A stretch of 64,000 bases of DNA. Source: Candidatus Bathyarchaeota archaeon (GTDB taxonomy: Archaea; Thermoproteota; Bathyarchaeia; Bathyarchaeales; Bathycorpusculaceae). The notes beneath the pieces are model-generated. The model saw nothing but the letters and a program-made list of their open reading frames with translations, was not told where the DNA came from and searched no databases. Of this stretch, positions 2-26,984 are shown in pieces; position 1 is the stretch's first letter; the number at the start of each line of letters is the position of its first letter. The position numbers were made by a program, and so were the translations under genes. The stretch lies in NCBI GenBank assembly GCA_963775465.1, contig CAVZIW010000001.1:96001-160000 (forward strand). The letters run 5' to 3'.

Positions 2-748
2 CCAGCACCCTCAGCAGCATTCCTATCTGCACTTGTTGACCAAGGCAGCTACTATATCCTTATCAGAATATTACTTTTCATAGTTCTTCCCTCATCAACG
101 TTGGATTGGACGATTATGTTAGCCATCCTCGCGGCTCTAACCATGATTGTAGGAAACGTATTCGCCCTAATCCAAAACGACATTAAACGCCTTATCGCGT
201 ACATATGCGTCGCAGACGTTGGCTACAACCTAGTTGCAATTGCCAGCTGGCAAACACAATTAGGCATCGCAGGCAACCTCTACTTCTTCCTAATTGGCGG
301 CTTAACTACTGCTTTGGCGTTCATGGTTATCGGAGTCATCAATAAGCATGGCATTAAAACACTCAATGACTTCGCAGGCTTAGGAAAAAAAATGCCTCTG
401 GCATGCATAGCCTTAGTCATCGCAGGTTTATCCTTTGCTGGAGTTCCACCACTCGGAGGATTCGTAGGCAAATATCTCGTATTCACTGCAGCTATAAGCT
501 CAAACCTTAGTTGGCTAGCAATCATAGGAGTATTAACAAGCGTGCTCCAAACCGCATACATTTTCCGCCTTATGAACGTCATGTACGGAAAGAAACCCAA
601 AGACGAAAGCCCCATAAAAGAAAACAAACATCTTCTCATCCCGATCTTCATGCTCGTAGCAGCAATCTTCATCCTCGGGCTATTCCCAGACATGGTGTTG
701 CAACTCATAAAACCAGTCATGAATCAACTACCCTACATAATACCATAG
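2..748 (+). CDS. Proton-translocating antiporter-like membrane subunit (NuoN/MrpD family), 5'-truncated by the window edge
   Basis: Frame is open from nt 2 (PAPSAAFLSA...). Motifs QNDIKRLIAY, GLGKKMP and LSFAGVPPLGGFVGK are typical of NuoN/MrpD subunits. A T-rich terminator-like tract follows. Confidence 0.85.
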   Translation, partial: PAPSAAFLSALVDQGSYYILIRILLFIVLPSSTLDWTIMLAILAALTMIVGNVFALIQNDIKRLIAYICVADVGYNLVAIASWQTQLGIAGNLYFFLIGGLTTALAFMVIGVINKHGIKTLNDFAGLGKKMPLACIALVIAGLSFAGVPPLGGFVGKYLVFTAAISSNLSWLAIIGVLTSVLQTAYIFRLMNVMYGKKPKDESPIKENKHLLIPIFMLVAAIFILGLFPDMVLQLIKPVMNQLPYIIP

Positions 749-2132: not shown

Positions 2133-3253
2133 TTTTCTTCCTCAATTAGGTGAATATTTCGATGTTCGATTACTTCTTTGGGTTTATCTGAACCCAGTTT
2201 TTTATGTACTTGTGTTATTTGCAGCCCTTTAATTAGGTTTAACTGGGTGCTGTTGTAGTTTGGGTTGCCACGGGCGAATTTAACGTGTTCTTCATCTTCC
2301 AAACTCACCACATCCCCTTCATCAAAAGTCCCTGTGACGTTAGTTACTCCAACTGGCAACAGACTGGAGCCTTCCATAATTGCCTTCTTTGCACCATCGT
2401 TAACTTCAATGGTTCCTTTAGCCGCGGCACAATAAGCGATCCAACGTTTCATCGCAGGCATCCGTGTTTGCGCTTTAAAGTGAGTTCCAACGTCTTTTCC
2501 AGTTAAAATATCTAAAATGACGTTGTTTTTTCGGCTGTTGGCAACAATAACTTGAATGCCACAGTTAGTGGCGATTTCTGCGGCTTTAATTTTGCTTTGG
2601 ATTCCTCCTCTGCCTATTTTGCTCTTGCCGTTTAGAGAATTTTTGAATTCAGTGGTTATTGACTCTACGGTTTTTATCAATTTAGCCCCGGGCTCAGAGG
2701 GATCTGCTGTGTATACTCCGTCAACATCTGAGAGAATAATTACCATATCTGCGCAGATTGCCCCAGCAACAAGTACACTGAGAATGTCGTTATCGCTAAA
2801 GTTAACTTTGTAACCTTCGGTTCTCATGAGTTCATCGATGGATGTGACGTCGTTTTCGTTAATTATAGGAATCACACCGATTTTTAGAAGTAAACTTAGA
2901 ACGTTACAGGTATGCACGTAGGATGCTCTATTTGAGAGGTCTTCGGCGGTTAACAGAATCTGGGCAACTTTCAAATCGAATTTTTTGAATAGTTCTCGGT
3001 ATTTTGCCATGAGAACGTTCTGTCCAGAAGCCGCTGCGGCTTGTTGGAAAACGATATCTTTGGGTTTAGGGGGAATTCCTAATTCTGCGATGCCTGCAGC
3101 AACCGCTCCTGAAGAGATGAGGACTATTTTGTCTCCTTTTTTTGTGGCATTGGCTATTTGACTTGTTAATTTATTCATTTCTTCGTGGTCTAGTTTTCCA
3201 TCTTTGGTTATGCCGTTTGTGCCGACTTTAACCACTATTAATCTTTGAGGCAT
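2129..3253 (-). CDS. proB: Glutamate 5-kinase with C-terminal PUA domain
   Basis: Motifs IVVKVGT, SSGAVAAG, PIINEND, FSDNDILS and the PUA segment SSLLPVGV...GTFDEGD. Confidence 0.97.
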   Translation of the reverse strand: MPQRLIVVKVGTNGITKDGKLDHEEMNKLTSQIANATKKGDKIVLISSGAVAAGIAELGIPPKPKDIVFQQAAAASGQNVLMAKYRELFKKFDLKVAQILLTAEDLSNRASYVHTCNVLSLLLKIGVIPIINENDVTSIDELMRTEGYKVNFSDNDILSVLVAGAICADMVIILSDVDGVYTADPSEPGAKLIKTVESITTEFKNSLNGKSKIGRGGIQSKIKAAEIATNCGIQVIVANSRKNNVILDILTGKDVGTHFKAQTRMPAMKRWIAYCAAAKGTIEVNDGAKKAIMEGSSLLPVGVTNVTGTFDEGDVVSLEDEEHVKFARGNPNYNSTQLNLIKGLQITQVHKKLGSDKPKEVIEHRNIHLIEEEK

Positions 3254-9551: not shown

Positions 9552-10103
9552 TTGATTGAAAAGAGCAGCCCCAAGGGCAATAAAAAGCAAAACTCGCTGA
9601 AAGGAATAGCAGACGAAACTAGCAAATTCGCAGTGGATTTTTCGAACTTAACGAACAATCCTGCAAAAAAAACAGAACACAAATCATTTGACTCGAATTT
9701 GAGAAGTATCATACCGCTAGATATAGAATACATTGGGCAATCACTCAAAAAAGTTCAAAATATTAAAATTTTTAGTGAAATGCTTTGGTCAGACAAGAAA
9801 ATTTCAGGAAAAATAACTAGCGATGTAATCAAAATAATGAATAAAGTTTACAGAAAAAATTTCTTGTTTGGAAACGGAAAGAGTTTGAGGTGCCCATTGG
9901 GAGGGTTGTTCTATCTTTTGGGTCATAGGTATGGTGATCCGAAGAAACAAAGAGAAGTAGCGCTAGTTCTTCAAACAACTGAAGTCTCGATAAGAATTTA
10001 TTACAAGCAATGGCTAAGAGATTTCCCTGAATTATTCCAAGATATAAAAGGAAAACTCTCTAAACAAGATCTTTTTCGTAAAGATTATTGTAAAATACCG
10101 TGA
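9552..10103 (+). CDS. Protein with a single TFIIB/TFB C-terminal cyclin repeat and HTH
   Basis: GKSLRCPLGGLFYLLG...KKQREVALVLQTTEVSIRIYYKQW resembles the TFB C-terminal consensus GKxP.GLAAA.LY...TQREVA.....TEVTIRNRYKEL. No Zn ribbon. Confidence 0.6.
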   Translation: MIEKSSPKGNKKQNSLKGIADETSKFAVDFSNLTNNPAKKTEHKSFDSNLRSIIPLDIEYIGQSLKKVQNIKIFSEMLWSDKKISGKITSDVIKIMNKVYRKNFLFGNGKSLRCPLGGLFYLLGHRYGDPKKQREVALVLQTTEVSIRIYYKQWLRDFPELFQDIKGKLSKQDLFRKDYCKIP

Positions 10104-16089: not shown

Positions 16090-16402
16090 TGGGCTGGCGT
16101 GTTGGTGTGTGGCTTTCGGACCCCAAAGGGTCTGAGGAAACTCCGCCCACATGTAGAATTGCAGTGCCCTCAGGGTACAAGTCGAGAGGCTTGGCAACGG
16201 AGCAGAAACGAAACGTCCAACTGGATATGGCCATGACACATTTGTGATGTCGAGTCCGCCAGCTTGGAAACGATGAAACGGCCGTCCTGCAAGTGGAAAG
16301 GGCAAACAGCGCCGATGAAGTCTCTACCGGAAGGTGCAGGTAGCCCGATTAGCCGAATGCCACAAATAACAGAAGGCGGGTTACGGCCAATACACCAGCC
16401 CA
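16090..16402 (+). ncRNA. rnpB: RNase P RNA (archaeal)
   Basis: P1: GGGCTGGCGTGTTGGT pairs with GCCAATACACCAGCCC. P2: TGTGGC/GCCACA. P3: GGACCC/GGGTCT. CR-I GAGGAAACTCCGCC pairs with GGCGGGTT (P4). Conserved GCAGAAAC, TGAAACGGC, TTAGCCGAATG and AACAGAAGGCGGGTTA are present. Confidence 0.95.
16373..16401 (+). repeat. attL core (rnpB 3' end: P4 and P1 3' strands)
   Basis: AAGGCGGGTTACGGCCAATACACCAGCCC, repeated at 24931. Confidence 0.9.
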
Positions 16403-16471
16403 CGTATTCAACAGAAGATAGCTGAAATAACAAATAACAGCCCTTCTGTTATATACGCCAATTCTAATGCT

Positions 16472-17431
16472 TTGGAATATTGGAAAAAGGAATTAGCAAA
16501 TAGAGACAGCAAAACTGCTTTACGATATCTCCAATACTTCAAGGGTTTCGTGGAATACATGGGACTGACTCCAGACCAAATATTAGCACAGCGAGAGCTG
16601 GATTTAAGAAGTTTAAATAGAAAAGTACAGCGCAGATTTGAAAGTGAATTCAAAGCCTACTTAGCCAAGAAAAGGGATGAAGGATTCAAAATTGCCACCC
16701 AGCAAGTAATGTTTGCTGCAATTCGCTCATTTTTTGAAATTCACTATTGCCCTCTAATAATGAGGAAAGGAGACTATCCAAAAGGAGATAGTAACGGTGT
16801 AAAAAGAGCAACAAAAGAAGCTATACTCAAAATCTTAACAAATAAAACAAGAAATTCCTTCACTTCACACACTCTTATTTTATTCATCAAGGATACTGGA
16901 TTACGCATTAGCGACGTAGTTGCAATGAAATGTGGAGACATTCCCCATCAGATTGAGAAAGGAATTTGCCCCATACAAATTAACGTAATCACTGAGAAAA
17001 CTAACCTCTTAGCTAAGACTTTCATAGGAAAAGAAGCCATCGATGCACTCAAAACCTATCTCGAAATACGAAAAGTTGGAAGTAAATGGCATAAGGAAAT
17101 AATTCCTGAAAAAATAACGCCAAATAGCCCATTGTTTAGATCTTGGACTTGTGGCTTAGTTAAGCCTTTGAACCGAATAACCGCTTCGCATCTGATCCGA
17201 AACGCATTTCTCTACATTGAAGAGAAGAGGATGTCAGCTCACAGTTTGCGAAAGAAGCTTCAAACAGATTTGGAGAAAGCTGGAGTAAACTCTAACTGGA
17301 TAGACCAGATCTTAGGGCATCAACTCATAAACAGCCGAGACGCATACAGTTTACCGACTGATGAAGAGTTAAAAGATGCCTATACAATCGCATACCAATA
17401 CATCAATCTATTCAGATTCTACATTAACTAA
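16472..17431 (+). CDS. Tyrosine recombinase/integrase, catalytic portion int(C)
   Basis: Catalytic residues DTGLRISD (R), EKT (K), HSLRK (HxxR), ILGH (H) and DAY (Y). The frame is open upstream to 16370, through the att site. Confidence 0.93.
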   Translation: MEYWKKELANRDSKTALRYLQYFKGFVEYMGLTPDQILAQRELDLRSLNRKVQRRFESEFKAYLAKKRDEGFKIATQQVMFAAIRSFFEIHYCPLIMRKGDYPKGDSNGVKRATKEAILKILTNKTRNSFTSHTLILFIKDTGLRISDVVAMKCGDIPHQIEKGICPIQINVITEKTNLLAKTFIGKEAIDALKTYLEIRKVGSKWHKEIIPEKITPNSPLFRSWTCGLVKPLNRITASHLIRNAFLYIEEKRMSAHSLRKKLQTDLEKAGVNSNWIDQILGHQLINSRDAYSLPTDEELKDAYTIAYQYINLFRFYIN

Positions 17432-17609
17432 GGAAGGATCTAAACAAAAGACAAATGTTTCATACGAGTCGACAAAAGCAGACAACTGCGATTATTCAGT
17501 AGCAGAGGCAAGAAATATTATAGAAGTAAAAACACTATTGGCAAAAGGCTTCAAATATGAGATGGACTACGATGGCATTAAGCTATTTACAAAAAATAGG
17601 CACTTTTAA
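17406..17609 (+). pseudogene. Probable frameshifted C-terminal tail of the integrase
   Basis: An overlapping ORF in another frame ends YSVAEARNIIEVKTLLAKGFKYEMDYDGIKLFTK, resembling the short C-terminal domain of many archaeal integrases (recalled, not searched). It has no independent start signal. Confidence 0.55.
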
Positions 17610-17661
17610 TGTTTGAAAGTCTTTTATACTTAAAAAACTGAAAACCCATAGAGGTAATTTC

Positions 17662-18450
17662 GTGAATCGAAGTCCAATTCAAGAACATACTACTGCACTT
17701 GTAAAGAACCTGATTAATGAATCAAAATCACTAAAAAAATTGGATCAAACAACAGTTAATGGCCGTCTAAAAGAACTGTTTATCTCTAAACTATTGAGCA
17801 AGTTTCTAACTAGCCAATTCGGAATAGGAAGTGGAGTGATAATTAATCAAATAGGCAAAGCTAGCAAGCAAATTGACATCATAATATATGATAAGAGAAT
17901 ACTACCACCGTTTATTGTTGAGCAAAACATAGGCGTTTATCCGATTGAATCTGTTTTAGCTGCCATTGAGGTACGAAGTCACGTAGATAAGTCGACAATT
18001 AAAATGTATGCAGAAAAAGCAACAAAATTAACTGCTGAAATATATGATTCTGATTGGAGTTTATACAGAGACTACTCGAAATATTTACCGTTTTATTGCC
18101 TTGTAGGTTTTTGTGATAAAGAACCATTTAAAGGTAAGAATTTTGACGAGATCTGGAGTTGGATGGCAAACAATGCCAAACCGCTTTTCGGCGTTTGCAT
18201 TATAAATAAACTTTCTTGGTTAAAAGTCTGTGGCGTAAAAGGTGCATTACATTTAGTAGACGATAATAGCGAGGAGACGAAAGCATTTATAGCGATCTTG
18301 CTTGACAATATTCGTACTTCTTCTCAGCGGAGATACCTGCACCTTGCTTATCACATAGATTGGCTAGGAATTTACACTCGAGATCAAACGGGAATAAAGA
18401 ATATTTTTGAGCAAAGAGAGGTTTCAAGAAAAGCGCAAGGAAAATTCTAG
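17662..18450 (+). CDS. DUF6602-type PD-(D/E)XK nuclease-like protein
   Basis: G.LKE....LL..FL...FGIGSG.II...SKQIDIIIYD...P.ESVLAAIEVRS pattern; RBS GAGGT before the GTG. Confidence 0.75.
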   Translation: MNRSPIQEHTTALVKNLINESKSLKKLDQTTVNGRLKELFISKLLSKFLTSQFGIGSGVIINQIGKASKQIDIIIYDKRILPPFIVEQNIGVYPIESVLAAIEVRSHVDKSTIKMYAEKATKLTAEIYDSDWSLYRDYSKYLPFYCLVGFCDKEPFKGKNFDEIWSWMANNAKPLFGVCIINKLSWLKVCGVKGALHLVDDNSEETKAFIAILLDNIRTSSQRRYLHLAYHIDWLGIYTRDQTGIKNIFEQREVSRKAQGKF

Positions 18451-18798
18451 TAATTTGGCTACAACTTATTAATTCGTTCCAGTTTGCGCGGGTCGCTCCG
18501 CTTCCCCGCTTTCTTTCAAATGAAAAGAAAGACAAGAAAAGAAACGGTTGCAATTGCAAAACCTTCCTACACTTTAGACCTTCGTCAACGAACCAAAAAA
18601 CTATGCGCATCAATCACATATCGTTCTCTTAATAGAAAAAAGAGTTATCTAAAGTAAAAACTAAAATATCAATAATTTTAAATAATGTTGAATTGAATTC
18701 ATTTGGATTTAAGAATAGATATTTCGATAAATTTTATTTGATGCAAAATTTCTTATACAACTTACGTCTAGAATTTATAGTTAGCGAGGTATGTTGCA

Positions 18799-19908
18799 AT
18801 GGTAAATAGAGAATCTTTTTCACGTGCTAAAAAGAGTGCTAGTGAACATTACAATGCGGCTCTTGGTGCTATACTTCTTTTGGTAGTTGCGGTTACTCTC
18901 TTGATAGGTTTGCCTTCGTTTATTGATCCAGAATCAGCTGTGGGTCTGACTGTTACGGTTGTTTGTGGAGTAACGGCGCTGTTGGCCACTTTGGTTCTTA
19001 CTACTTTTATTTTAAGTTGCTTAGGCTTATCGAATAGGGATGAGGCACTTGGATTGCCAACGGGTAGCGTGCGAGCGATTATTGCTTTGAGTCTAATTCT
19101 AATCTTTTCTATCCTGAGTATTTTTATGTTTCAATATATGGATGATCCCGTGGTTACAACAACAATTAATACTGTCACAACTAATAATTCTACAATTGGT
19201 CAAGAAATAATCACAAACCAGACAGATGTAATCAAGGGGACTTCACAAGCTGTAGTTGACTTTTCTAAGCAAACGTTAACAACTGTTGGAACCTTGGTTG
19301 TTGCTATTGCGGCTTTCTATTTTGGAACAAGATCTGTTCAGGTTGCTCAAGGTTCGACAGAAAAAACTGAATTATTCATTGATCCTTCAGGAACAAAAGA
19401 ATTAGTAATAGATTCTGATAATAAACTAACACCACTTACCATTTTAATAAAGCCTACTCCAGATGACGCGGCAGTTAGTTACAAAGTAGTTGACGATGAG
19501 TATAAATCGCTACAGCGTGAGAGTTCAAACAGGTATATTTATACCCCCACTACTGCAGAGGCGAAAGATGTTACTTTAACTTTCGAAATGCCAGCTTACT
19601 CTGATGTCGCGGCTAAAGAGCTCAAAGTGAAAATTGTCAAACCTGAGCTATCTATCGAACCTTCTACAGACAAGGAAATAACAAAAGGTGCCAGTATATC
19701 TTTTGAAGCTAAACCTTCGCCTAAAGACACGGATGTTGAATGCACTTTGGCTGGCGATGATAAAGGCTCAGTGAAGCAAGATCCTAAGAACAAATTTACC
19801 TATACATCTGCAATTGACGAAGGCAAAGAGGCTACTTTAACTTTCAAAATGTCTAAGTACCCCAATGTCGCGGCTAAAGAGCTCAAAGTGAAAATTGTCA
19901 AAAAGTAG
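18799..19908 (+). CDS. Multi-pass membrane protein with two C-terminal beta-rich (Ig-like) repeats
   Basis: About four hydrophobic helices, LGLPTGSVRAIIAL and AIAAFYFG, then two ~88-aa repeats each ending VAAKELKVKIVK. Confidence 0.75.
   Translation: MVNRESFSRAKKSASEHYNAALGAILLLVVAVTLLIGLPSFIDPESAVGLTVTVVCGVTALLATLVLTTFILSCLGLSNRDEALGLPTGSVRAIIALSLILIFSILSIFMFQYMDDPVVTTTINTVTTNNSTIGQEIITNQTDVIKGTSQAVVDFSKQTLTTVGTLVVAIAAFYFGTRSVQVAQGSTEKTELFIDPSGTKELVIDSDNKLTPLTILIKPTPDDAAVSYKVVDDEYKSLQRESSNRYIYTPTTAEAKDVTLTFEMPAYSDVAAKELKVKIVKPELSIEPSTDKEITKGASISFEAKPSPKDTDVECTLAGDDKGSVKQDPKNKFTYTSAIDEGKEATLTFKMSKYPNVAAKELKVKIVKK
19604..19902 (+). repeat. 38-bp perfect intragenic direct repeat
   Basis: ATGTCGCGGCTAAAGAGCTCAAAGTGAAAATTGTCAAA at 19604-19641 and 19865-19902. 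Confidence 0.9.
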
Positions 19909-20057
19909 GTTGCAGAGGTAATATTAATTGACAAGCTAACTCCATCCTTTTTTTATTATCATTTCTTAATTTTCTTTAAAGAGGTTATAGACTCAGCAAA
20001 TATTTACTTATACTTCTTTTTAGCAAAGAACCTTGCAAAGAACCTATCAAATCGCAG

Positions 20058-20327
20058 CTATTCGAAGTCATTCTCAGCTCTGAATTTCTCCCATATATCC
20101 AGCATATCTACAAAACCGTAGAATAAACTAGGCAAAGTTCTAGGCGCATAAGCACCTAAAGAATCGAATGACAAAACAACATTGAAAAACAGATAATGGC
20201 TATTAAAACGATAGTAGATTGAAATGCTGTTAGTCAATCTTAATTTGTGGTATCCTTTGGAATGAGCGGGAGTCACCCAATCTCTGTCATCAACCAAGCT
20301 ATCGCTTTCGACGTTATCCAAAATCAT
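20058..20327 (-). CDS. Hypothetical protein coupled to the rep 3' end
   Basis: ATG 20327 lies within the last codons of rep and is preceded by GAGGGG. Confidence 0.5.
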   Translation of the reverse strand: MILDNVESDSLVDDRDWVTPAHSKGYHKLRLTNSISIYYRFNSHYLFFNVVLSFDSLGAYAPRTLPSLFYGFVDMLDIWEKFRAENDFE

Positions 20328-21374
20328 GTTTTCCCCTCTCGACCCAAACGTCTCCTTGCCCCTCATTTATGTCACAAAATTCGCTTCTCTGATAGTCAAC
20401 GCTGTCTTTGCTGTAGATGAAACATCGATTGCCGAGATAGCGTAAGGGAACCAATTTTTTTTGACAAATAGGACAAAGCTCTTTGCGTTTTTGAATGGTG
20501 ACTTTTAGTTTGCGGTAGCTGCACGTTCCAAACCAAGTTGCAACGTGGAAGCGGACAACATTGCGTTTAACAGAAGCATGGTTCAGTTGATACCAAGCCG
20601 TTCCCATGATGGTTTTACGTTCATCTTTGACCTTTACGATATAACCATCTTTTTCAAACAATCGCCGAGTTCTTGCTTCAAATCCGTTACAACCCGCGCA
20701 AGTGATTATGCTTTTAGCGTTGAATTTCGGGCAATGGCGACATTGTCCGTAACCATTTAGGATAAAGCCAATACAGTGAAAGTGAGGACTCCAGTACCAG
20801 CCCTTCATGTTGCGGATTCCGTTATTGTAAACATCGTGGGCACGATATCTGAAACCATGAAAGATTAGTACACCACCGATAACGCCTCTCGATTTCAGGA
20901 TTTTTGAAGCTTTTAATCGTAATTGCTCAAAATCTAATCCATAATCAGTTTTGGGAATACTTACAATGATGTGTTCGGCAACACCAGAAGTCTTGGAAGC
21001 CTCACATATTCGCTGAGTTATTCTATCTGCTTCACGAACAGCCCAACCAGACTTAAACAGACTGGGCAAGTCGGTTTGTCACAGCTAGCATGAACCTTTC
21101 GAACAAACACCTTACCTTTATAGTTCATTCTGTCTAGCGTTGTCTTATTGTGTAATTCGGTATGAAGGCAACCCTTGAAACTGACAAATCGACCGCAGTT
21201 TGAGTTAGTTAGTTTTCCATGACCTACGAGTTCGAAATCGCCATAGACACCCCACTTCTGAAAACTCTCATCGTCGAGAGATTTCTCGAACTCTTGATAA
21301 GCCTTTTCTTCTTCGGATTTAACAAACAATGTTTTTTCATTTTTTCTCTTGCTAATATAATGAGGAAAACACAT
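20314..21374 (-). pseudogene. HUH-superfamily rolling-circle replication initiator (Zn-finger type), split by a 1-nt frameshift at ~21056
   Basis: Joined product: C..C.H and CDKPTCPVC Zn ligands, then (F)KSGWAVREA, motif I HIIVSIP, GGVLIFHGFR, motif II SPHFHCIG, motif III TAWYQLNH, WFG.CSY and CPIC. Adding one T (TGTTTAAG to TGTTTTAAG, minus strand) fuses ORFs 21018-21374 and 20314-21069. Confidence 0.8.
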
Positions 21375-21416
21375 AAATGGTAAAGTAAATTTGCCAGTAA
21401 AGGAGATTGAGTACTT

Positions 21417-21974
21417 GTGGAGAAATTTAAGGATGAATATTGTGAAAAAATTTTCGTAGTAATTTCAAACAATGATAACGAAGTTAGATTCAACGAATTA
21501 CACCGACAACTAGCCAAATATGGTGCAAAAATGTCAAAACCGACTTTGATTCAACATTTAAATCACCTTTTAGAAAAAGGAATTGTTCTACGCAAGGAAA
21601 CCGACAAACAAAATGTAACCTATGGAATAGATTGGAAAGAATACATTGAGGCGCAAAGAGTCAAGAAGTCTATGGAAAAAATGTCTAAGAGTAAAGAGAA
21701 TTTCAAGTTGGAAAGCATAAATAATCAAGTTATTTACGCCTGTGGTATGTTAACTTTGGGCGAGTTCTATTTTACTAAATTTGCTATTCTTGACCTTATT
21801 GAACCAGAAAAAAAGCTACAGCACTATATCTCTTATCAACTGATTCGAAGGATTTCTAGTATTTACTTTTCATGGCTTTTAGATACCTGCAAAGGTTCCC
21901 AAGAAAACAGTCAAAAAGCACTAAAATACATAGACAAACGCATCAAAGAAATTCACAAAGCTCTTTCAGGATAG
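21417..21974 (+). CDS. Winged-helix transcription regulator divergent from rep
   Basis: N-terminal wHTH VRFNELHRQL...MSKPTLIQHLNHLLEKGIVLR...VTY. Confidence 0.8.
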   Translation: MEKFKDEYCEKIFVVISNNDNEVRFNELHRQLAKYGAKMSKPTLIQHLNHLLEKGIVLRKETDKQNVTYGIDWKEYIEAQRVKKSMEKMSKSKENFKLESINNQVIYACGMLTLGEFYFTKFAILDLIEPEKKLQHYISYQLIRRISSIYFSWLLDTCKGSQENSQKALKYIDKRIKEIHKALSG

Positions 21975-22174
21975 TAAACATAAAAAACATACTTGGTAGA
22001 ATAAGGGAGTAACATCGCTAACGGCTCCCTCTTCTTCAGCCATGGCGTATTTGCCCTTTAAAAATAGACCGCTTTTTTATAAAAAGCTAAGCAAAAATGA
22101 ATTACTCTATGTTTGCACAAGAGTAATCAGAAAGCCTTGTTTTTTGGCACCCCAAGACCCAAAAAACCGCCAAT

Positions 22175-22357
22175 TTAACAGCTAATATGATGTTGCCCTT
22201 TTAGCAATCCTCTATGCCTTGCAGAACAACGCCTGCATCTTTTTTGACCCGTTGGAATTTTCCGCCATTCAGGAGTCTTGGCGCGTGCCTTAAGCTTCCC
22301 ATTACAGTCACAACAGTGATATTTTACTGGTCTATCCCTAATTCCAAAAATCTGCAA
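22175..22357 (-). CDS. Small putative Zn-finger protein or remnant
   Basis: CCDC...CRRC in a basic 60-aa ORF inside the element. Confidence 0.4.
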   Translation of the reverse strand: MQIFGIRDRPVKYHCCDCNGKLKARAKTPEWRKIPTGQKRCRRCSARHRGLLKGQHHISC

Positions 22358-22428
22358 GAATTAATCACTTTAAAACTAATCTTTCTGCTTTTAACTCTGT
22401 CTTATCAGTCTCATATTAATGTTTATGA

Positions 22429-22501
22429 AGCAAGACACCTCGCCTAGCGGATGACCCCATCCTAAAGGATACCTCCCCGCAGGCAAGGGCTCTGTCTTGC
22501 T
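22429..22501. repeat. Nested GC-rich stem-loop, partly repeated at 26001-26049 (candidate origin or ncRNA)
   Basis: Outer arms AGCAAGACA/TGTCTTGCT, middle arms CCTCGCCTAGCGG/CCGCAGGCAAGG, inner hairpin ATCC-TAAA-GGAT. Confidence 0.7.
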
Positions 22502-22719
22502 AAATAAACAAATAAACGAAAAAGAGAAGTATCGGTTTCTTATTATTTGATTAGCTCTTATTGATCTGATTTTGGAGTTGAGAGTGAGTTCCTAAATATT
22601 ATATTGTAGAAAAAACAGTTCAACAATACATTGAACAATTGCGGGGCTGTGTGCTAAAGGAAGGTAGTTACTGTTGGCGGCAATGTCCCCTAAATATTTG
22701 GATAAAAAATTAGTGAGTA

Positions 22720-23064
22720 TTGATGCTTTTGAAAATGAATTCAGCCGTGGAAAAGAGCTACACTCTTATTATTAGAGTGGTTAATTTTAAAGAAAACAAA
22801 CCAATTGAAAATGTTAACGTGACAGTTTTCAGATTAGAACAGGAATCAATAACTCTTAATCAGTGGACTGAAAATCTCAAAAATGGAACTCCATTTAAAA
22901 GGTTGATTTTTTCGATGAATACCGATAATAATGGCATGGTGACCGCTGAGGTTTCAGAAGGTATTTATGAAGCTAAAATCGAAAAATATGGTTTAACTAA
23001 AATTTGTGAGATAACGCAAAACGATGAAATTGTTTTTGTTGAACCAAAAAAGCATTGGTGGTGA
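22720..23064 (+). CDS. Small beta-sandwich protein (carboxypeptidase-regulatory-like)
   Basis: KPIENVNVTV...TDNNG.V...EG.YE.KIEKYG pattern. Confidence 0.6.
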   Translation: MMLLKMNSAVEKSYTLIIRVVNFKENKPIENVNVTVFRLEQESITLNQWTENLKNGTPFKRLIFSMNTDNNGMVTAEVSEGIYEAKIEKYGLTKICEITQNDEIVFVEPKKHWW

Positions 23065-23129
23065 TAGTGAAGAGTGCGCCCGCACTGAATTGCATATTTA
23101 GAAGAAATTCATTAAGAAATCAGAAACAG

Positions 23130-23348
23130 CTATTGTTTGAAAATTACCAGATATTTTCTTTCTATATCTTCTACTATGGTTAATCCATGCTTTTTCGCAT
23201 GAGCTTCTATTCCTGATTTGTTATAATCGCACTTTATTTGAATCTGATAATGGCTAGGAACTCTTTCACATATGTTTACGTATGACGGTTCAACTAAATC
23301 TTTTGACACTAATTCTTTTAGAATAGCCATGGCTTGCTCTCTATTCAA
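23130..23348 (-). CDS. Small hypothetical protein
   Basis: 72-aa ORF with TTG start and protein-like composition. Confidence 0.55.
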   Translation of the reverse strand: MNREQAMAILKELVSKDLVEPSYVNICERVPSHYQIQIKCDYNKSGIEAHAKKHGLTIVEDIERKYLVIFKQ

Positions 23349-23783
23349 ATCTAAATACCCACAAAGAATTTAGTTATTTCAAGTAGGCTAAATATTTTTC
23401 CATAGAGAAAGCATAGACAGAACTATCAAAAAATGACCTAATATGTTACTTTAAAGCCTGTTTCGCAGTTCTTACACGTATACTGTTCAACGCGGAAAAC
23501 ATTGCAACTTAGAAATTTGTCAGGGTTGGAAACGTTTTTTCCGCAATTAGGACATTTAGCCACATGCAGCCCTCGAGCATAAACTAGTACTTTTGAAAAA
23601 AGACTTAAGAAGATTTGTGATTACATCAAGGTACAATAGCCATTCCAAAGTTTTCCATAAACACGCGCTAAAAAACAAGTAGTCCTATCAGTAAAGGAAC
23701 CTTGGCTAAAGCAAGTCAGCATTACGCGAAAAGGAATAGACAAGATAACATATATATTTAGAACAAATCAAAATAGTTGTTGA

Positions 23784-24080
23784 GTGAATTATATGATAAA
23801 TTTTGAAGAAATTATGGGGTTACAGGTGGTAACTTCGGAGGCAAATATTATTGGAGTAGTAGAAGGCGCAAAAGTTGACACCGCAACTTGGATGATAAAG
23901 TTTTTGAACGTGAAACTTACTGGTGAGGCTGCCGATAATCTCGGAAAGAAGAAGAGATTCAGAAGTACCAAAATATGCATTCCAGTTGGCATGGTTCAAG
24001 CAGTTGGGAATATAGTAACCATCTCAAGGTCGATAGAAGAGTTGGAAAGCTCTCAGGAAATTACAGAATGCACAAAATAA
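23784..24080 (+). CDS. PRC-barrel domain protein
   Basis: IMGLQVVTSEANIIGVVEG..VDT.TW.I..L.V...IP...V.AVGNIVTI. Confidence 0.85.
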   Translation: MNYMINFEEIMGLQVVTSEANIIGVVEGAKVDTATWMIKFLNVKLTGEAADNLGKKKRFRSTKICIPVGMVQAVGNIVTISRSIEELESSQEITECTK

Positions 24081-24233
24081 AATGAACTAAGATCTTAAGC
24101 ACTGAGACAAGATAGTCTCATATTAGAAACTAAGAGCTTGCTTCAGAATAACCCAACATCTTTGGGGTTTTCTCGCAAATGAGGACTTTGAATTGCCGAC
24201 ACAATTTACCTGCTATGTGTAAGAGAGTTGATT

Positions 24234-24734
24234 TTAGAGAATGTGCATAGTGATGAGAACATGAAATATTATCACCAAGAAAAACACCATGACCAAGCTG
24301 GCGTGAATAAACTTGTTAGTTTTATGGTCAATTTGCTTTATTAACGGGAATCTCTCAGCGAAACCTGATATTACTTCTAATGTCATGGAAATGTAAATAG
24401 CTAAACCCGTTCCTAAAGACGGATAGAAGAATATGGATCTTCCTAGTTGACCCGAAAAATGAATTGAGACTAAAGAGAAGAATAGAAGATTACCGAATAT
24501 GTGGTACCTAAGAAGGCCTTTGTACTTTTGAGGATAATAACGCTTTAAAACTACGAATGCTGGGGTACTGATGGCGATGTAACTTGTTCCAATTATGGCA
24601 AGCCAGTGACTGAAACGAAGAGGACCAACAAAGAAGCTTACGTTAATCCAATGTAGGAAGGCTGCGACCATGAGCAAGGCTGTTACTATGATAAATAGTA
24701 ACGCCAGCAGAAATTCTGAGTTTTTAAAGTCCAA
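24234..24734 (-). CDS. Membrane protein with conserved His residues (cytochrome b561 / ferric-reductase-TM-like)
   Basis: About five TM helices with His at FSHW, RYHIFG, SIHF, FIHA and IFHV; paralog at 29835-30365. Confidence 0.65.
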   Translation of the reverse strand: MDFKNSEFLLALLFIIVTALLMVAAFLHWINVSFFVGPLRFSHWLAIIGTSYIAISTPAFVVLKRYYPQKYKGLLRYHIFGNLLFFSLVSIHFSGQLGRSIFFYPSLGTGLAIYISMTLEVISGFAERFPLIKQIDHKTNKFIHASLVMVFFLVIIFHVLITMHIL

Positions 24735-24859
24735 TAAAAATCCTCTTCCTTAAAGTATTGATAACTAAATATAAGAATTACTTAAGGCAGCTTAACTTCA
24801 AATTCTCCTTTCGATGGACTCTAATAAATAGATGACGCGCACTAAAGGAAAACTAAAAG

Positions 24860-24866
24860 TTTATAA
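24860..24866 (+). promoter_or_regulatory. TATA box upstream of the putative int(N) fragment
   Basis: AAAAGTTTATAA with a purine-rich BRE-like flank, ~35 nt upstream of ATG 24899. Confidence 0.5.
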
Positions 24867-24898
24867 CTAGATAGCGACATAAAGACACAGAGATCAAC

Positions 24899-25057
24899 AT
24901 GAGCGATAATAGAAGAAAATTACTAAGCCCAAGGCGGGTTACGTCCAATACACCAGCCCGCATATACAACAGAAGGTATCTGAAGTAACAAAAGACAGCC
25001 CTTCTGTTATACATGCCAATTCTTAATCTTTGAAATATTGGAAAAAGGAATTAGCAA
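24899..25057 (+). pseudogene. int(N) fragment (MSDNRRKLLSP...) running into attR, followed by the dead 5' part of a second, older integrase
   Basis: 24931-25057 is 112/127 nt identical to 16373-16499 and translates KAGYVQYTSPHIQQKVSEVTKDSPSVIHANS*..LKYWKKELA versus KAGYGQYTSPRIQQKIAEITNNSPSVIYANSNALEYWKKELA. Confidence 0.75.
24931..24959 (+). repeat. attR core of element 1 (also left junction of element 2)
   Basis: AAGGCGGGTTACGTCCAATACACCAGCCC, one mismatch to the rnpB 3' end. Confidence 0.9.
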
Positions 25058-25125
25058 GTAGTGATGATAATCTCCAAAGGTTTACTTCTCTCCTGCTCGC
25101 GCTTATCGCCTGTTTAAATATCTGC

Positions 25126-25440
25126 TTATGGATTAAAATTTACAGTGTCAATTCTGTGATGTTCCACTTCAGGTTGCCTTTCAAAAAAAGGAGTAACTTT
25201 GTCCATTGTGGAAGAAAATAACTCTTCTGATTCTAAAAATGACTCGTTGTCTTCCCACATCGTTATAATTAAAGCAACGTCGTCATTGTCACATGAAAAT
25301 GATGATACATAACCTCGATACCCCTTTGCGCTTCGTACAAGTTTGTTTAAGATAAGGTCTAACTCAGCAAAGCCTTCTTCGCGTTTTCCAGATTTAAAGA
25401 AAAACTTTGCTATTCTTGCGACAACCAATTCATACACCAA
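25126..25440 (-). CDS. ABM-family (antibiotic biosynthesis monooxygenase-like) dimeric alpha-beta barrel protein
   Basis: ARI..F..K.GK.EE...AKGYRG...A.IITMWE..E pattern. Confidence 0.75.
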   Translation of the reverse strand: MVYELVVARIAKFFFKSGKREEGFAELDLILNKLVRSAKGYRGYVSSFSCDNDDVALIITMWEDNESFLESEELFSSTMDKVTPFFERQPEVEHHRIDTVNFNP

Positions 25441-25625
25441 GATTAGATTATTTTTTTATAGATTTAACTTTTTGCAAATCTTTAACTTCGATAAGTCTGA
25501 GGGTTCCACCCTCTTTTGTCGCCAAACATTTTGAGTACCATCCAATGATTAAAATTTGACGAAAAATAGATCTACATCTCTTATAGCGTTGCCACTTACC
25601 TATTCTTCTCAAAACTTGTAAAGCA

Positions 25626-25856
25626 CTATGTTTTAAATGACCTAAAGTTTCGGTATCCCTTTTTTTCCATTTCAGCTAAGAAACCTTCACTCTCAGATTC
25701 GGGCAAAAGAGGACAAATGCTAAACTGTACTTTACCATTTTGATGTTGCTCTTCAGTGGTTTCATCAAAAACACATCTTTTATTTCCTTCAATTAGAAGA
25801 ATACACTTAGCATTATTATCGAAGTTACAGCATATTTTACGACCAAATTTGCCCAA
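25626..25856 (-). CDS. Small Cys-containing hypothetical protein
   Basis: 76-aa ORF with five Cys and RBS-like GAAGGTGG before the TTG. Confidence 0.5.
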   Translation of the reverse strand: MGKFGRKICCNFDNNAKCILLIEGNKRCVFDETTEEQHQNGKVQFSICPLLPESESEGFLAEMEKKGYRNFRSFKT

Positions 25857-26000
25857 AATTCCACCTTCATAGTTCTGAATGATATAGAGCCTTGGAGTAA
25901 AAATATTATACGCTAATCTTTCGCGTCGCTCCCGCTCCGCTTTTTGCCTTGCGCTTTTAAATACAGGCTAAACGGTTAAAGCGACTCGGTTGTGGTGGCA

Positions 26001-26049
26001 GATGACCCTCCCTAAAGGATACCCTCCCCGCAAGCAAGGGTTTTGTCTT
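26001..26049. repeat. Second copy of the 22450-22498 motif
   Basis: GATGACCCTCCCTAAAGGATACCCTCCCCGCAAGCAAGGGTTTTGTCTT versus GATGACCCCATCCTAAAGGATACCTCCCCGCAGGCAAGGGCTCTGTCTT. Confidence 0.85.
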
Positions 26050-26064
26050 ACAACATCATATTGG

Positions 26065-26984
26065 CTAAAGAAATTCGGCATTTTTCGGTTCAATTTGTAT
26101 TGTCGTATGTTCGATACCAAATTTATCGTTTAATAACTTGTTTATTCTTTGGATAATTTCACTCACATCTTCGCTACTATGTATAGTCGCTTCTATATGT
26201 GCGGTTAAGGAATACATTCCAGAAGTTATTTCCCATATATGCATGTCATTAATTGCCGATTTACTTCAGGGATATTTTTCTTAATTTCCTCTGTAACAAC
26301 ATTTGCGTTAATTCCTTTAGGGGAAGTCTCCATTAGAACATTAATGGAGTCTTGCATTAATCCGAAAGCCCAAATAAAGATTAGCACTGAAATCCCAATG
26401 CCCAATAATGGGTCAATTATATACCAACCAGTTAAAGAAACAACGATTGCGCCAATTATGATAAACACAGAGGAGGCTGTATCAGCAAACATGTGAAGAA
26501 ACGCACCTTTAACATTTAGGTCGTTCTTAATGCTTTTTCGCAGAATTAGTATGCTAAATCCATTTGCAGCCAATCCCGCCAAAGCAACGAGAAACATTTC
26601 AAAGCCTAAAACAGGCTGAGGATTTAGTAACCGTTCTATCCCCTGAAAAAATATGTATGCAGTTACCCCGAAGAGGAAAATGCTGTTAAATAAAGCTGCC
26701 AAAATTTCTGCTCTGTAATACCCGAATGTTCGATGATGACATGGTTCTCTGCAGGAAATCATGATCGCTGCAAAACTGATTATCAGGGCAAATAAATGGG
26801 TAAACATGTGACTTGCATCGCTGATTAACGCTAAGCTACCAGATAGTATACTTCCAACAACTTCGATTACCATAACCGACGCTGTAACAACCATAGAAAG
26901 AATTAATCGATTCTTAGTAACGTTCTTATACTCATGAATATCGGACAAAGTATCCATTTTCGGTCTATGATTGTGTTTCATCAA
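26065..26984 (-). pseudogene. CDF-family (CzcD/ZitB) metal efflux transporter, frameshifted at ~26260
   Basis: SLALISDASHM, TFGYYRAEILAA and AFLHMFAD. The C-terminal domain (INDMHIWEITSG..LTAHI...KFGIEHTTIQIE) continues in another frame to the stop at 26065. Confidence 0.85.

Follow-up and report, generated by a model that had tools for sequence, protein, structure and literature searches.

Introduction

Some described elements break up their own integrase gene when they insert, or uncouple it from a promoter. The integrases of SSV1, pTN3 and pT26-2 carry attP, the attachment (att) site of the element, inside the integrase frame, and insertion at the 3' end of a stable-RNA gene parts the 5' piece of the gene from its catalytic part (PMC8371274, PMC7253208). 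Such suicidal integrases are marked by the Pfam family PF16795, and the att-in-gene arrangement is given a single origin in the PF16795 superfamily, described in hyperthermophilic archaea (PMC8371274). In ICEclc of Pseudomonas knackmussii B13, an outward promoter at the far end, Pcirc, comes to lie upstream of the integrase only when the ends join, and raises its expression in the circle (PMC5812530). Here we describe a 64,000-nucleotide (nt) stretch of a Bathyarchaeia genome, hereafter the window (contig CAVZIW010000001.1, positions 96,001 to 160,000), which holds an integrated element of about 8.6 kb with a tyrosine integrase at the 3' end of rnpB, the RNase P RNA gene. An original prediction, made from the letters of the window, had read this gene as an SSV-like split integrase. 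We think it probable, at roughly 0.6, that the integrase gene spans attP, that the far arm of the element provides promoter and start codon, that integration beheads the gene, and that the copy in the window is decaying or misassembled.

In its proposed layout, with attP in the integrase frame and insertion at a stable-RNA 3' end, the locus would resemble SSV1, pTN3 and pT26-2; with the pT26-2 family in particular it has in common a tolerant att peptide read in different frames, relics, and the reconstitution of the gene by tandem insertion (PMC7253208). It differs from them in the protein family, which shows no PF16795 and has a Xer/lambda-like fold and sequence, and in its target, which is rnpB and not a tRNA gene. 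The integrase is co-directional with rnpB, whereas that of pT26-2 is antiparallel to its tRNA gene (PMC7253208). Unlike the SSV type, only 3-29 codons and the promoter would be detached here, the folded enzyme staying whole on one side, and the hosts are Bathyarchaeia of soil, sediment and marsh instead of hyperthermophiles. As for ICEclc Pcirc, a conserved AAAAGCTTATAACTAG box and an ATG on the far arm would fit an excision-dependent promoter fusion; ICEclc, in a bacterial host, keeps a weak promoter, Pint, and a complete intB13 open reading frame (ORF) when integrated (PMC5812530), whereas many members of the present family seem to lose their start codon as well.

With XerA and pNOB8-type integrases the protein shares the two-domain architecture of a tyrosine recombinase and residues of the R-K-HxxR-H-Y type, and relatives of Group A (L001, L002, L003, L005, L022, L039 and L040) keep, as the pNOB8 type does, a complete gene after integration; theirs has GGAGG and an ATG or GTG. 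Unlike that type, L011, L013, L044 and L046 have no start of their own, and the only candidate in the window is a TTG at 16472. A long N-terminal tail across attP, a conserved C-terminal tail of about 35 amino acids (aa), carriage on an element and specificity for rnpB further set the family apart from XerA and the pNOB8 type. As in integration at tRNA and tmRNA genes (the target of ICEclc is a tRNA-Gly gene), the element carries its own copy of the target gene's 3' end; the gene in question is rnpB instead.

An element integrated in the last 30 nt of rnpB

The source genome (2.42 Mb) contains a single copy of rnpB. Rfam family RF00373 (RNaseP_arch) matches positions 16097-16395 of the window with 193 bits over model positions 1-288, i.e. 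a full-length rnpB, and in the sequence itself the 3' strand of P1 can be followed to about 16400, so that the gene covers 16097..16400 on the plus strand with its last ~28 nt inside the att core. Seen on the Rfam alignment, the attL core (30 nt, 16373..16402, plus strand) takes in the conserved ACAGAAGGCGGGUUAC stretch together with the 3' strand of P1, and the conserved ACAGAAGGnGGnUUAC stretch likewise lies within it; the integrase frame reads this core as the codons KAGYGQYTSP. Repeat comparison locates the attR core at 24931..24960 (plus strand), which is the original 3' end of rnpB and is identical to attL in 28 of 30 nt.

The direct repeat itself is longer, with 134 nt at 87% identity (16373-16506 and 24931-25064); the true att core is its first 30 nt, and the other 104 nt are a relic. 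Flanking repeats in relatives measure 28-33 nt, have the same sequence and correspond to the last ~30 nt of rnpB, with a perfect 33-nt repeat in L044. Contigs of run X2, from another study, depart from the window sequence at 16401 and 16403. Positions 16373-24960 are an element of about 8.6 kb integrated in the last 30 nt of the single rnpB, with a GC content of 36.5% against 38.6-40.4% in the flanks. Because the element carries a copy of the rnpB 3' end, rnpB stays whole, with its 193 bits over the full model.

A far arm with a promoter-like box and a start codon

The integrase body occupies 16370..17431 on the plus strand. Its frame is open from the codon that follows a TAA at 16367-16369 and reads QKAGYGQYTSPRIQQKIAEITNNSPSVIYANSNALEYWKK... 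up to the stop at 17431; the first ATG, GTG or TTG in it is the TTG at 16472, with no Shine-Dalgarno (SD) sequence before it. At the other end of the element, a promoter-like region (24855..24898, plus strand) combines AAAAG with a TATA-like TTTATAAC box at 24860-24867 and with GAGATC at 24890-24895, 3 nt ahead of an ATG at 24899. This start and the following bases, 10 2/3 codons in all (MSDNRRKLLSP; 24899..24930, plus strand), read into attR. From the ATG to the core there are 32 nt, one short of the canonical 33, which puts the arm one base out of the KAGY frame.

Alignment A2 of 15 right arms shows the order AAAAGCTTATAACTAG box, CAGGGATTAAA, ATG AGT GAA..., AAATTACTAAGCCC, core, and the AAAAGCTTATAACTAG and CAGGGATTAAA-ATG units are kept throughout. 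From this pattern, the box is a putative promoter and the CAGGGATTAAA/GAGATC region a candidate SD. In 12 of the 15 arms the start codon stands in the KAGY frame; the ATG-to-core lengths of these arms (24, 30, 33, 39, 42 and 54 nt) are each divisible by 3, whereas the exceptions (the window with 32 nt, L005 with 38 and L049 with 41) each fall one base short of a multiple of 3.

The window is the sole arm of the 15 without a base between TACTAAGCC and AAGG, and each of the 14 relatives in the alignment has one or more additional bases at this place. An extra A behind 24930 occurs in three contigs from two studies, one in run X1 and two in run X2; these are Logan contigs of related strains, which leave large parts of the element without cover. 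The window arm has either lost a base by mutation or suffered an assembly error. These results bear out what the original prediction had said of the ends: a frame open from 16370 after the TAA, a core that is at once rnpB strand and integrase codons, a TATA-like box at 24860 and an ATG at 24899 leading MSDNRRKLLSP into attR, an offset of one base from KAGY and, judged from relatives, a missing A near 24930.

Joined ends, open frames and the start of the integrase

The ends of 15 elements were joined in silico at attP. In L007, L008, L043, L044, L049 and L050 this yields full-length integrase ORFs of 408-424 aa that run from the arm start through the core to the catalytic domain, and L023 gives an in-frame fusion whose integrase is broken downstream. 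Compared with its relative L044, L049 has an arm shorter by 1 nt and an integrase that reads the core in the RRVT frame; arm and integrase frames have shifted together, so the fusion is kept.

The stretch behind the core points in the same direction. Among 33 distinct linkers, the integrase frame is open in 23 and the other two frames in 5 and 5, with a mean shuffle expectation of 0.29, and because of this excess the open frame is significant at the level of the family only. Relatives read the core in all three frames, as KAGY, RRVT or GGLRP; judged from these sequences, the kept feature is the openness of the frame and not the peptide. Between the core and the invariant YW motif, L011, L013, L028, L044, L045 and L046 have no ATG, GTG or TTG at all, so that their translation must begin upstream of the core.

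In the arrangement that we favor, transcription and translation would start on the far arm of the circular form and reading would cross attP, where the rnpB 3' sequence would provide about 10 codons, followed by an unstructured linker of about 25 codons and then by the folded integrase. Integration would cut the integrase off from its promoter and start codon and from its first 11 codons, and efficient integrase production would be expected only from an excised or incoming circle.

A series of observations weighs against a gene that spans attP. For the window by itself, 29% of shuffles leave the frame open between core and conserved start, so that its openness is not beyond chance, and the TTG at 16472 could serve as the integrase start. 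After joining, five Group A elements (L001, L002, L005, L040 and L020) have an arm ORF of only 45-54 aa, and three of the 15 elements are discordant, namely the window (arm ORF of 26 aa), L014 and L055; the seven Group A members listed above have their own GGAGG and ATG or GTG start. Of the 281 database homologs of the integrase, the best 120 underlie all database-protein figures given here; 38 of the 120 start 7 residues before A-x-x-Y-W, and none has an N-terminus of the KLLSP-KAGY type. A scan of viral_contigs with the family alignment returned 0 relatives, terminal overlap marking a circle was absent from all fetched contigs, and no go-back joint of a circle occurred among the compared Logan contigs, which left large parts of the element uncovered; neither an attP junction nor a free circle was thus seen in these three sets. 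The comparison of the window linker with the relic behind attR (see below) gave no coding signal and no purifying selection. The loci are related to each other, and counts made over them overstate their independence. The promoter and SD roles proposed for the far arm are themselves read from sequence.

The main rival reading, which we regard as unlikely, lets the arm provide a promoter and a short upstream ORF crossing attP, with the integrase starting internally (at TTG 16472 in the window, elsewhere 7 residues before A-x-x-Y-W); the fusions would be tolerated by-products and the protein would not be split. In both readings integration would uncouple the integrase from its promoter, much as with Pcirc of ICEclc (PMC5812530). 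An internal start suits Group A well: its arm ORFs of 45-54 aa, inspected by hand in L001, L002, L003 and L005, stop within ~10 nt of an integrase ATG or GTG that follows a GGAGG. Group A, L014, L007/L008 and P0103 have an ATG, GTG or TTG 7 residues before A-x-x-Y-W, the arm motif AAATTACTnnGCCC is kept as DNA even in another frame (L049 versus L044), the linker is variable and predicted to be unstructured, and the window arm ORF has 26 aa as it stands. The same reading is hard to square with the six representatives that lack any start codon between core and conserved domain, with an integrase frame open far more often than the others, with arm lengths that vary by multiples of 3 and with an L049 arm that shifts with its integrase frame. 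In 11 of 16 representatives, the codon that corresponds to TTG 16472 could not act as a start; on the other side, TTG occupies that Leu in 4 of the 16, compared with an 11% share of TTG overall, which agrees with a start there.

We find it quite improbable that the gene is an ordinary, unsplit integrase of the pNOB8 type beside attL, starting at TTG 16472 with its own signals, with an upstream openness due to chance in T-poor sequence and an arm ATG belonging to an unrelated small ORF. The 29% of window shuffles that stay open and the low T content of the linkers (6-29%) would agree with this, but the openness across the family (23 of 33 versus 5 and 5) and the conservation of box and ATG in 15 arms do not. 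The database gene call for the window, P0002, begins at the TTG, which has no SD; a TTATATA at 16449-16455 might pass for its promoter, but is missing from the linker of the closest relative (L038, peptide GPYVTNFPS) and by its spacing would put the start site after the TTG. Read-through from rnpB in the integrated state, with the ATG of GAATGCC as start and the ribozyme gene supplying the N-terminus, is hardly credible: gene calls such as MPQKTKGGLRP... and MPLKQKAGY... do start at this ATG, which shares the integrase frame in L007, L008, L014, L053 and L055, but these are 5 of about 20 open rnpB-adjacent loci, not above the one in three that chance would give, the TAA at 16367 blocks it in the window, and a processed, structured RNase P RNA is an unlikely template for translation.

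Public gene calls often begin inside rnpB, for example as MPQKTKGGLRP... or ...ARVARLAECH..QKAGY. Such calls among the 120 database proteins are P0016, P0023, P0052, P0058, P0080, P0088, P0091, P0092, P0102, P0111, P0116 and P0119, and they are annotation artefacts of the open frame. In the subgroup of the window, the gene calls P0002-P0009 have inconsistent starts.

In L014, at ~9938-9949, the arm frame comes to its stop in C CCA AAA TAA just past the core, and from there the -1 frame carries on as integrase; this site has the form of a slippery heptamer, in this one lineage only. Programmed -1 frameshifting was rejected as a common explanation of the discordant elements, as the window and L055 have no such site.

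The integrase is Xer/lambda-like

The integrase matches Pfam PF00589 at residues 148-327 (2.1e-16, 60.6 bits against a gathering cut-off of 27.1), as do two relatives. R179, K210/K216, H291, R294 and Y326 are invariant in an alignment of 28 sequences (A1) and H317 nearly so; by their motif order these are the probable catalytic residues. The AlphaFold2 model has a mean predicted local distance difference test (pLDDT) value of 83, with low confidence for residues 1-30, and the fold, with the core-binding domain, begins at ALEYW (~16466). Integration would therefore remove a promoter, a start codon and a short tail, and not a domain.

The nearest sequences in the PDB are XerA (4a8e, 3.9e-5) and XerD, and the nearest folds XerA (4a8e, 6.1e-8), an integron integrase and lambda integrase; no SSV integrase is found among the PDB sequence matches or the fold matches listed. 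PF16795 gave no match at E<=10 in three members (P0001 and the integrases of L044 and L043). The window integrase is Xer/lambda-like and not of the SSV family.

The membership in the SSV/pTN3 family that the original prediction had assumed is therefore unsupported, while other parts of its interpretation fare better, and overall it is partly supported. Of the division into int(N) and int(C), the detachment of 11 codons and the promoter stands, but there is no folded Int(N) domain, with residues 1-30 at low pLDDT. The continuous frame expected in joined circles appears in full length in 6 of 15 elements and as an in-frame fusion in a seventh, and fails in the five joined Group A elements and in the three discordant ones, the window among them. 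Homologs that start with signals of their own, which had been named as speaking against the idea, come close to being realized in Group A with its SD and ATG or GTG; this does not apply to the subgroup of the window.

The family may even represent a second, independent origin of self-splitting, suicidal modules, an idea to which we give slightly less than even odds. In mesophilic Bathyarchaeia, a Xer/lambda-like family would have enclosed attP, identical with the universally conserved rnpB 3' end, within its own 5' frame; the same 30 nt would be at once a strand of the ribozyme, the core for recombination and a set of codons readable in each of the three frames, the arm start shifting to match, and integration would work as a directionality switch through the loss of promoter and start codon. 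If so, the same design would have arisen independently in an unrelated branch of tyrosine recombinases, arguing that it is selected as a compact module for integration and directionality, archaeal attachment sites would include the RNase P RNA gene besides tRNA and tmRNA genes, and one short sequence would be constrained as catalytic RNA, recombination site and coding sequence together.

The C-terminal tail (...AEARNIIEVKTLLAKGFKYEMDYDGIKLFTKNRHF) of the window integrase is detached as a separate +1-frame ORF at 17376..17609 (plus strand). A frameshift near 17399-17412, located by protein-level comparison, separates it from the body, whereas homologs keep the tail in frame and measure 402-417 aa counted from the core; blastn of the 3' end of the window integrase against L037 and L038 DNA gave no match. 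With two frameshifts the window copy is probably decaying: the arm that is 1 nt short and the second frameshift that detaches the tail most likely reflect a decaying, immobilised copy or assembly errors. The conserved tail of ~35 aa comes in two types, ...AEARNxxEVKxLLAKGYKYEMDYDGIKLF.. and ...IEVNANDIQAIKQALLKGYRHADTVGDIRLYL...

Distribution of the family and targeting of rnpB

All close genomic matches of the integrase come from Bathyarchaeia. At E<=1e-50 a member is present in 11 of 401 sampled genomes of the class, including 9/103 in the window's own taxonomic family and 6/40 in its genus. Of the loci examined, which are related to each other, 18 of 36 from genomes and 16 of 23 from metagenomes have an rnpB immediately upstream in the same orientation, which supports insertion of the integrase family directly 3' of rnpB across Bathyarchaeia relatives. 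An integrase directly 3' of rnpB can serve as a marker of integrated elements in Bathyarchaeia, a class with a poorly known set of mobile elements, and annotators should be wary of integrase gene calls that begin within rnpB as artefacts.

A literature search returned no report of rnpB as an archaeal attachment site, most subscription journals and supplementary target tables being outside its reach. RNase P is not mentioned in the accessible parts of a paper on Bathyarchaeia viruses (PMC10541130) or of one on Thaumarchaeota mobile elements (PMC6563490).

The Rfam scan found no RNA gene at 12 loci without upstream rnpB. Neither rnpB nor another Rfam RNA lies nearby upstream of the integrase in L010, L012, L015, L016, L025 and L056, a subgroup in which a conserved stretch encoding (Y/N)KGAFG (TATAAAGGGGCTTTTGG-like) lies some 20 codons ahead of the conserved start and could be another target site or a promoter. 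In L013, two inverted rnpB copies at 177-472 (+) and 2862-3160 (-), each followed by an integrase, converge at the very end of a 252-kb contig; the pair could stem from a rearrangement at the att site, by inversion or by duplication, or else be a fold-back artefact of the assembly.

Earlier occupancy of the site

Directly behind attR, positions 24961..25064 (plus strand) hold the relic of a second integrase from the same subfamily, corresponding to its 5' region and recognized by DNA identity and a search of the own genome. The relic is 87% identical to 16403-16506 at the DNA level and contains an in-frame TAA at 25024-25026; in the own-genome search it matches integrase query residues 2-48 with 68% protein identity and one TAA. 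It is because this older relic adjoins attR that the direct repeat reaches 134 nt. The relic is the mark of an earlier occupant and shows that the rnpB site had been in use already. The codon differences between window linker and relic are 2 synonymous and 13 non-synonymous, and the other frames look alike; since the relic is a pseudogene, this comparison says little.

A 59-nt direct repeat of 71% identity (family D3) links 22447-22505 inside the element with 25998-26056, about 1 kb past attR, and the GC content of 25065-26100 is element-like at 36.8%. From this repeat, the remains of the older element may reach to at least 26056.

Tandem arrays at rnpB are present in L007, L008, L023 and L030. 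A second arm type, with GATATTAAGAATATTAGT ATG and two codons before the core, is found in L007 (13562), L008 (4304) and L030 (12660), where it terminates small elements of ~3.5-3.8 kb in the rnpB tandem arrays; a tiny ORF, MILRILV, overlaps its ATG. A third arm type (GTG GCA ATT TCG CCA AAT, with a later-starting core) occurs in L009 (8466-9659), L051 (from 1579), L023 (15176 and 17118) and L024 (9762). In L009 and L051 it is contiguous with a full integrase and no rnpB lies upstream, an arrangement that would fit an attP-like state as well as a joint where two tandem elements meet. The neighbors in L009 are HNH, AAA and STAND-like genes without housekeeping genes, compatible with both a free element and a tandem junction.

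Cargo of the element

The cargo of the element, delimited at 17662..24734 from the ORF list, Pfam and PHROGs, comprises a DUF6602 protein (17662-18450), a repeat-bearing membrane or surface protein of 369 aa (18799-19908), two overlapping ORFs on the minus strand (20314-21374), a winged-helix-like regulator (21417-21974), a PRC-barrel protein (23784-24080) and a membrane protein of 166 aa (24234-24734), and the remaining ORFs belong to no known family. The PHROGs scan of the cargo returned matches to unknown-function families only, so the element is not assignable as virus or plasmid. Neither Pfam nor PHROGs assigns a family to the ORF at 18799-19908; hydrophobic stretches mark its N-terminal part, and it contains an internal 114-nt repeat of 76% identity at 19528-19641 and 19789-19902, with a spacing of 261 nt.

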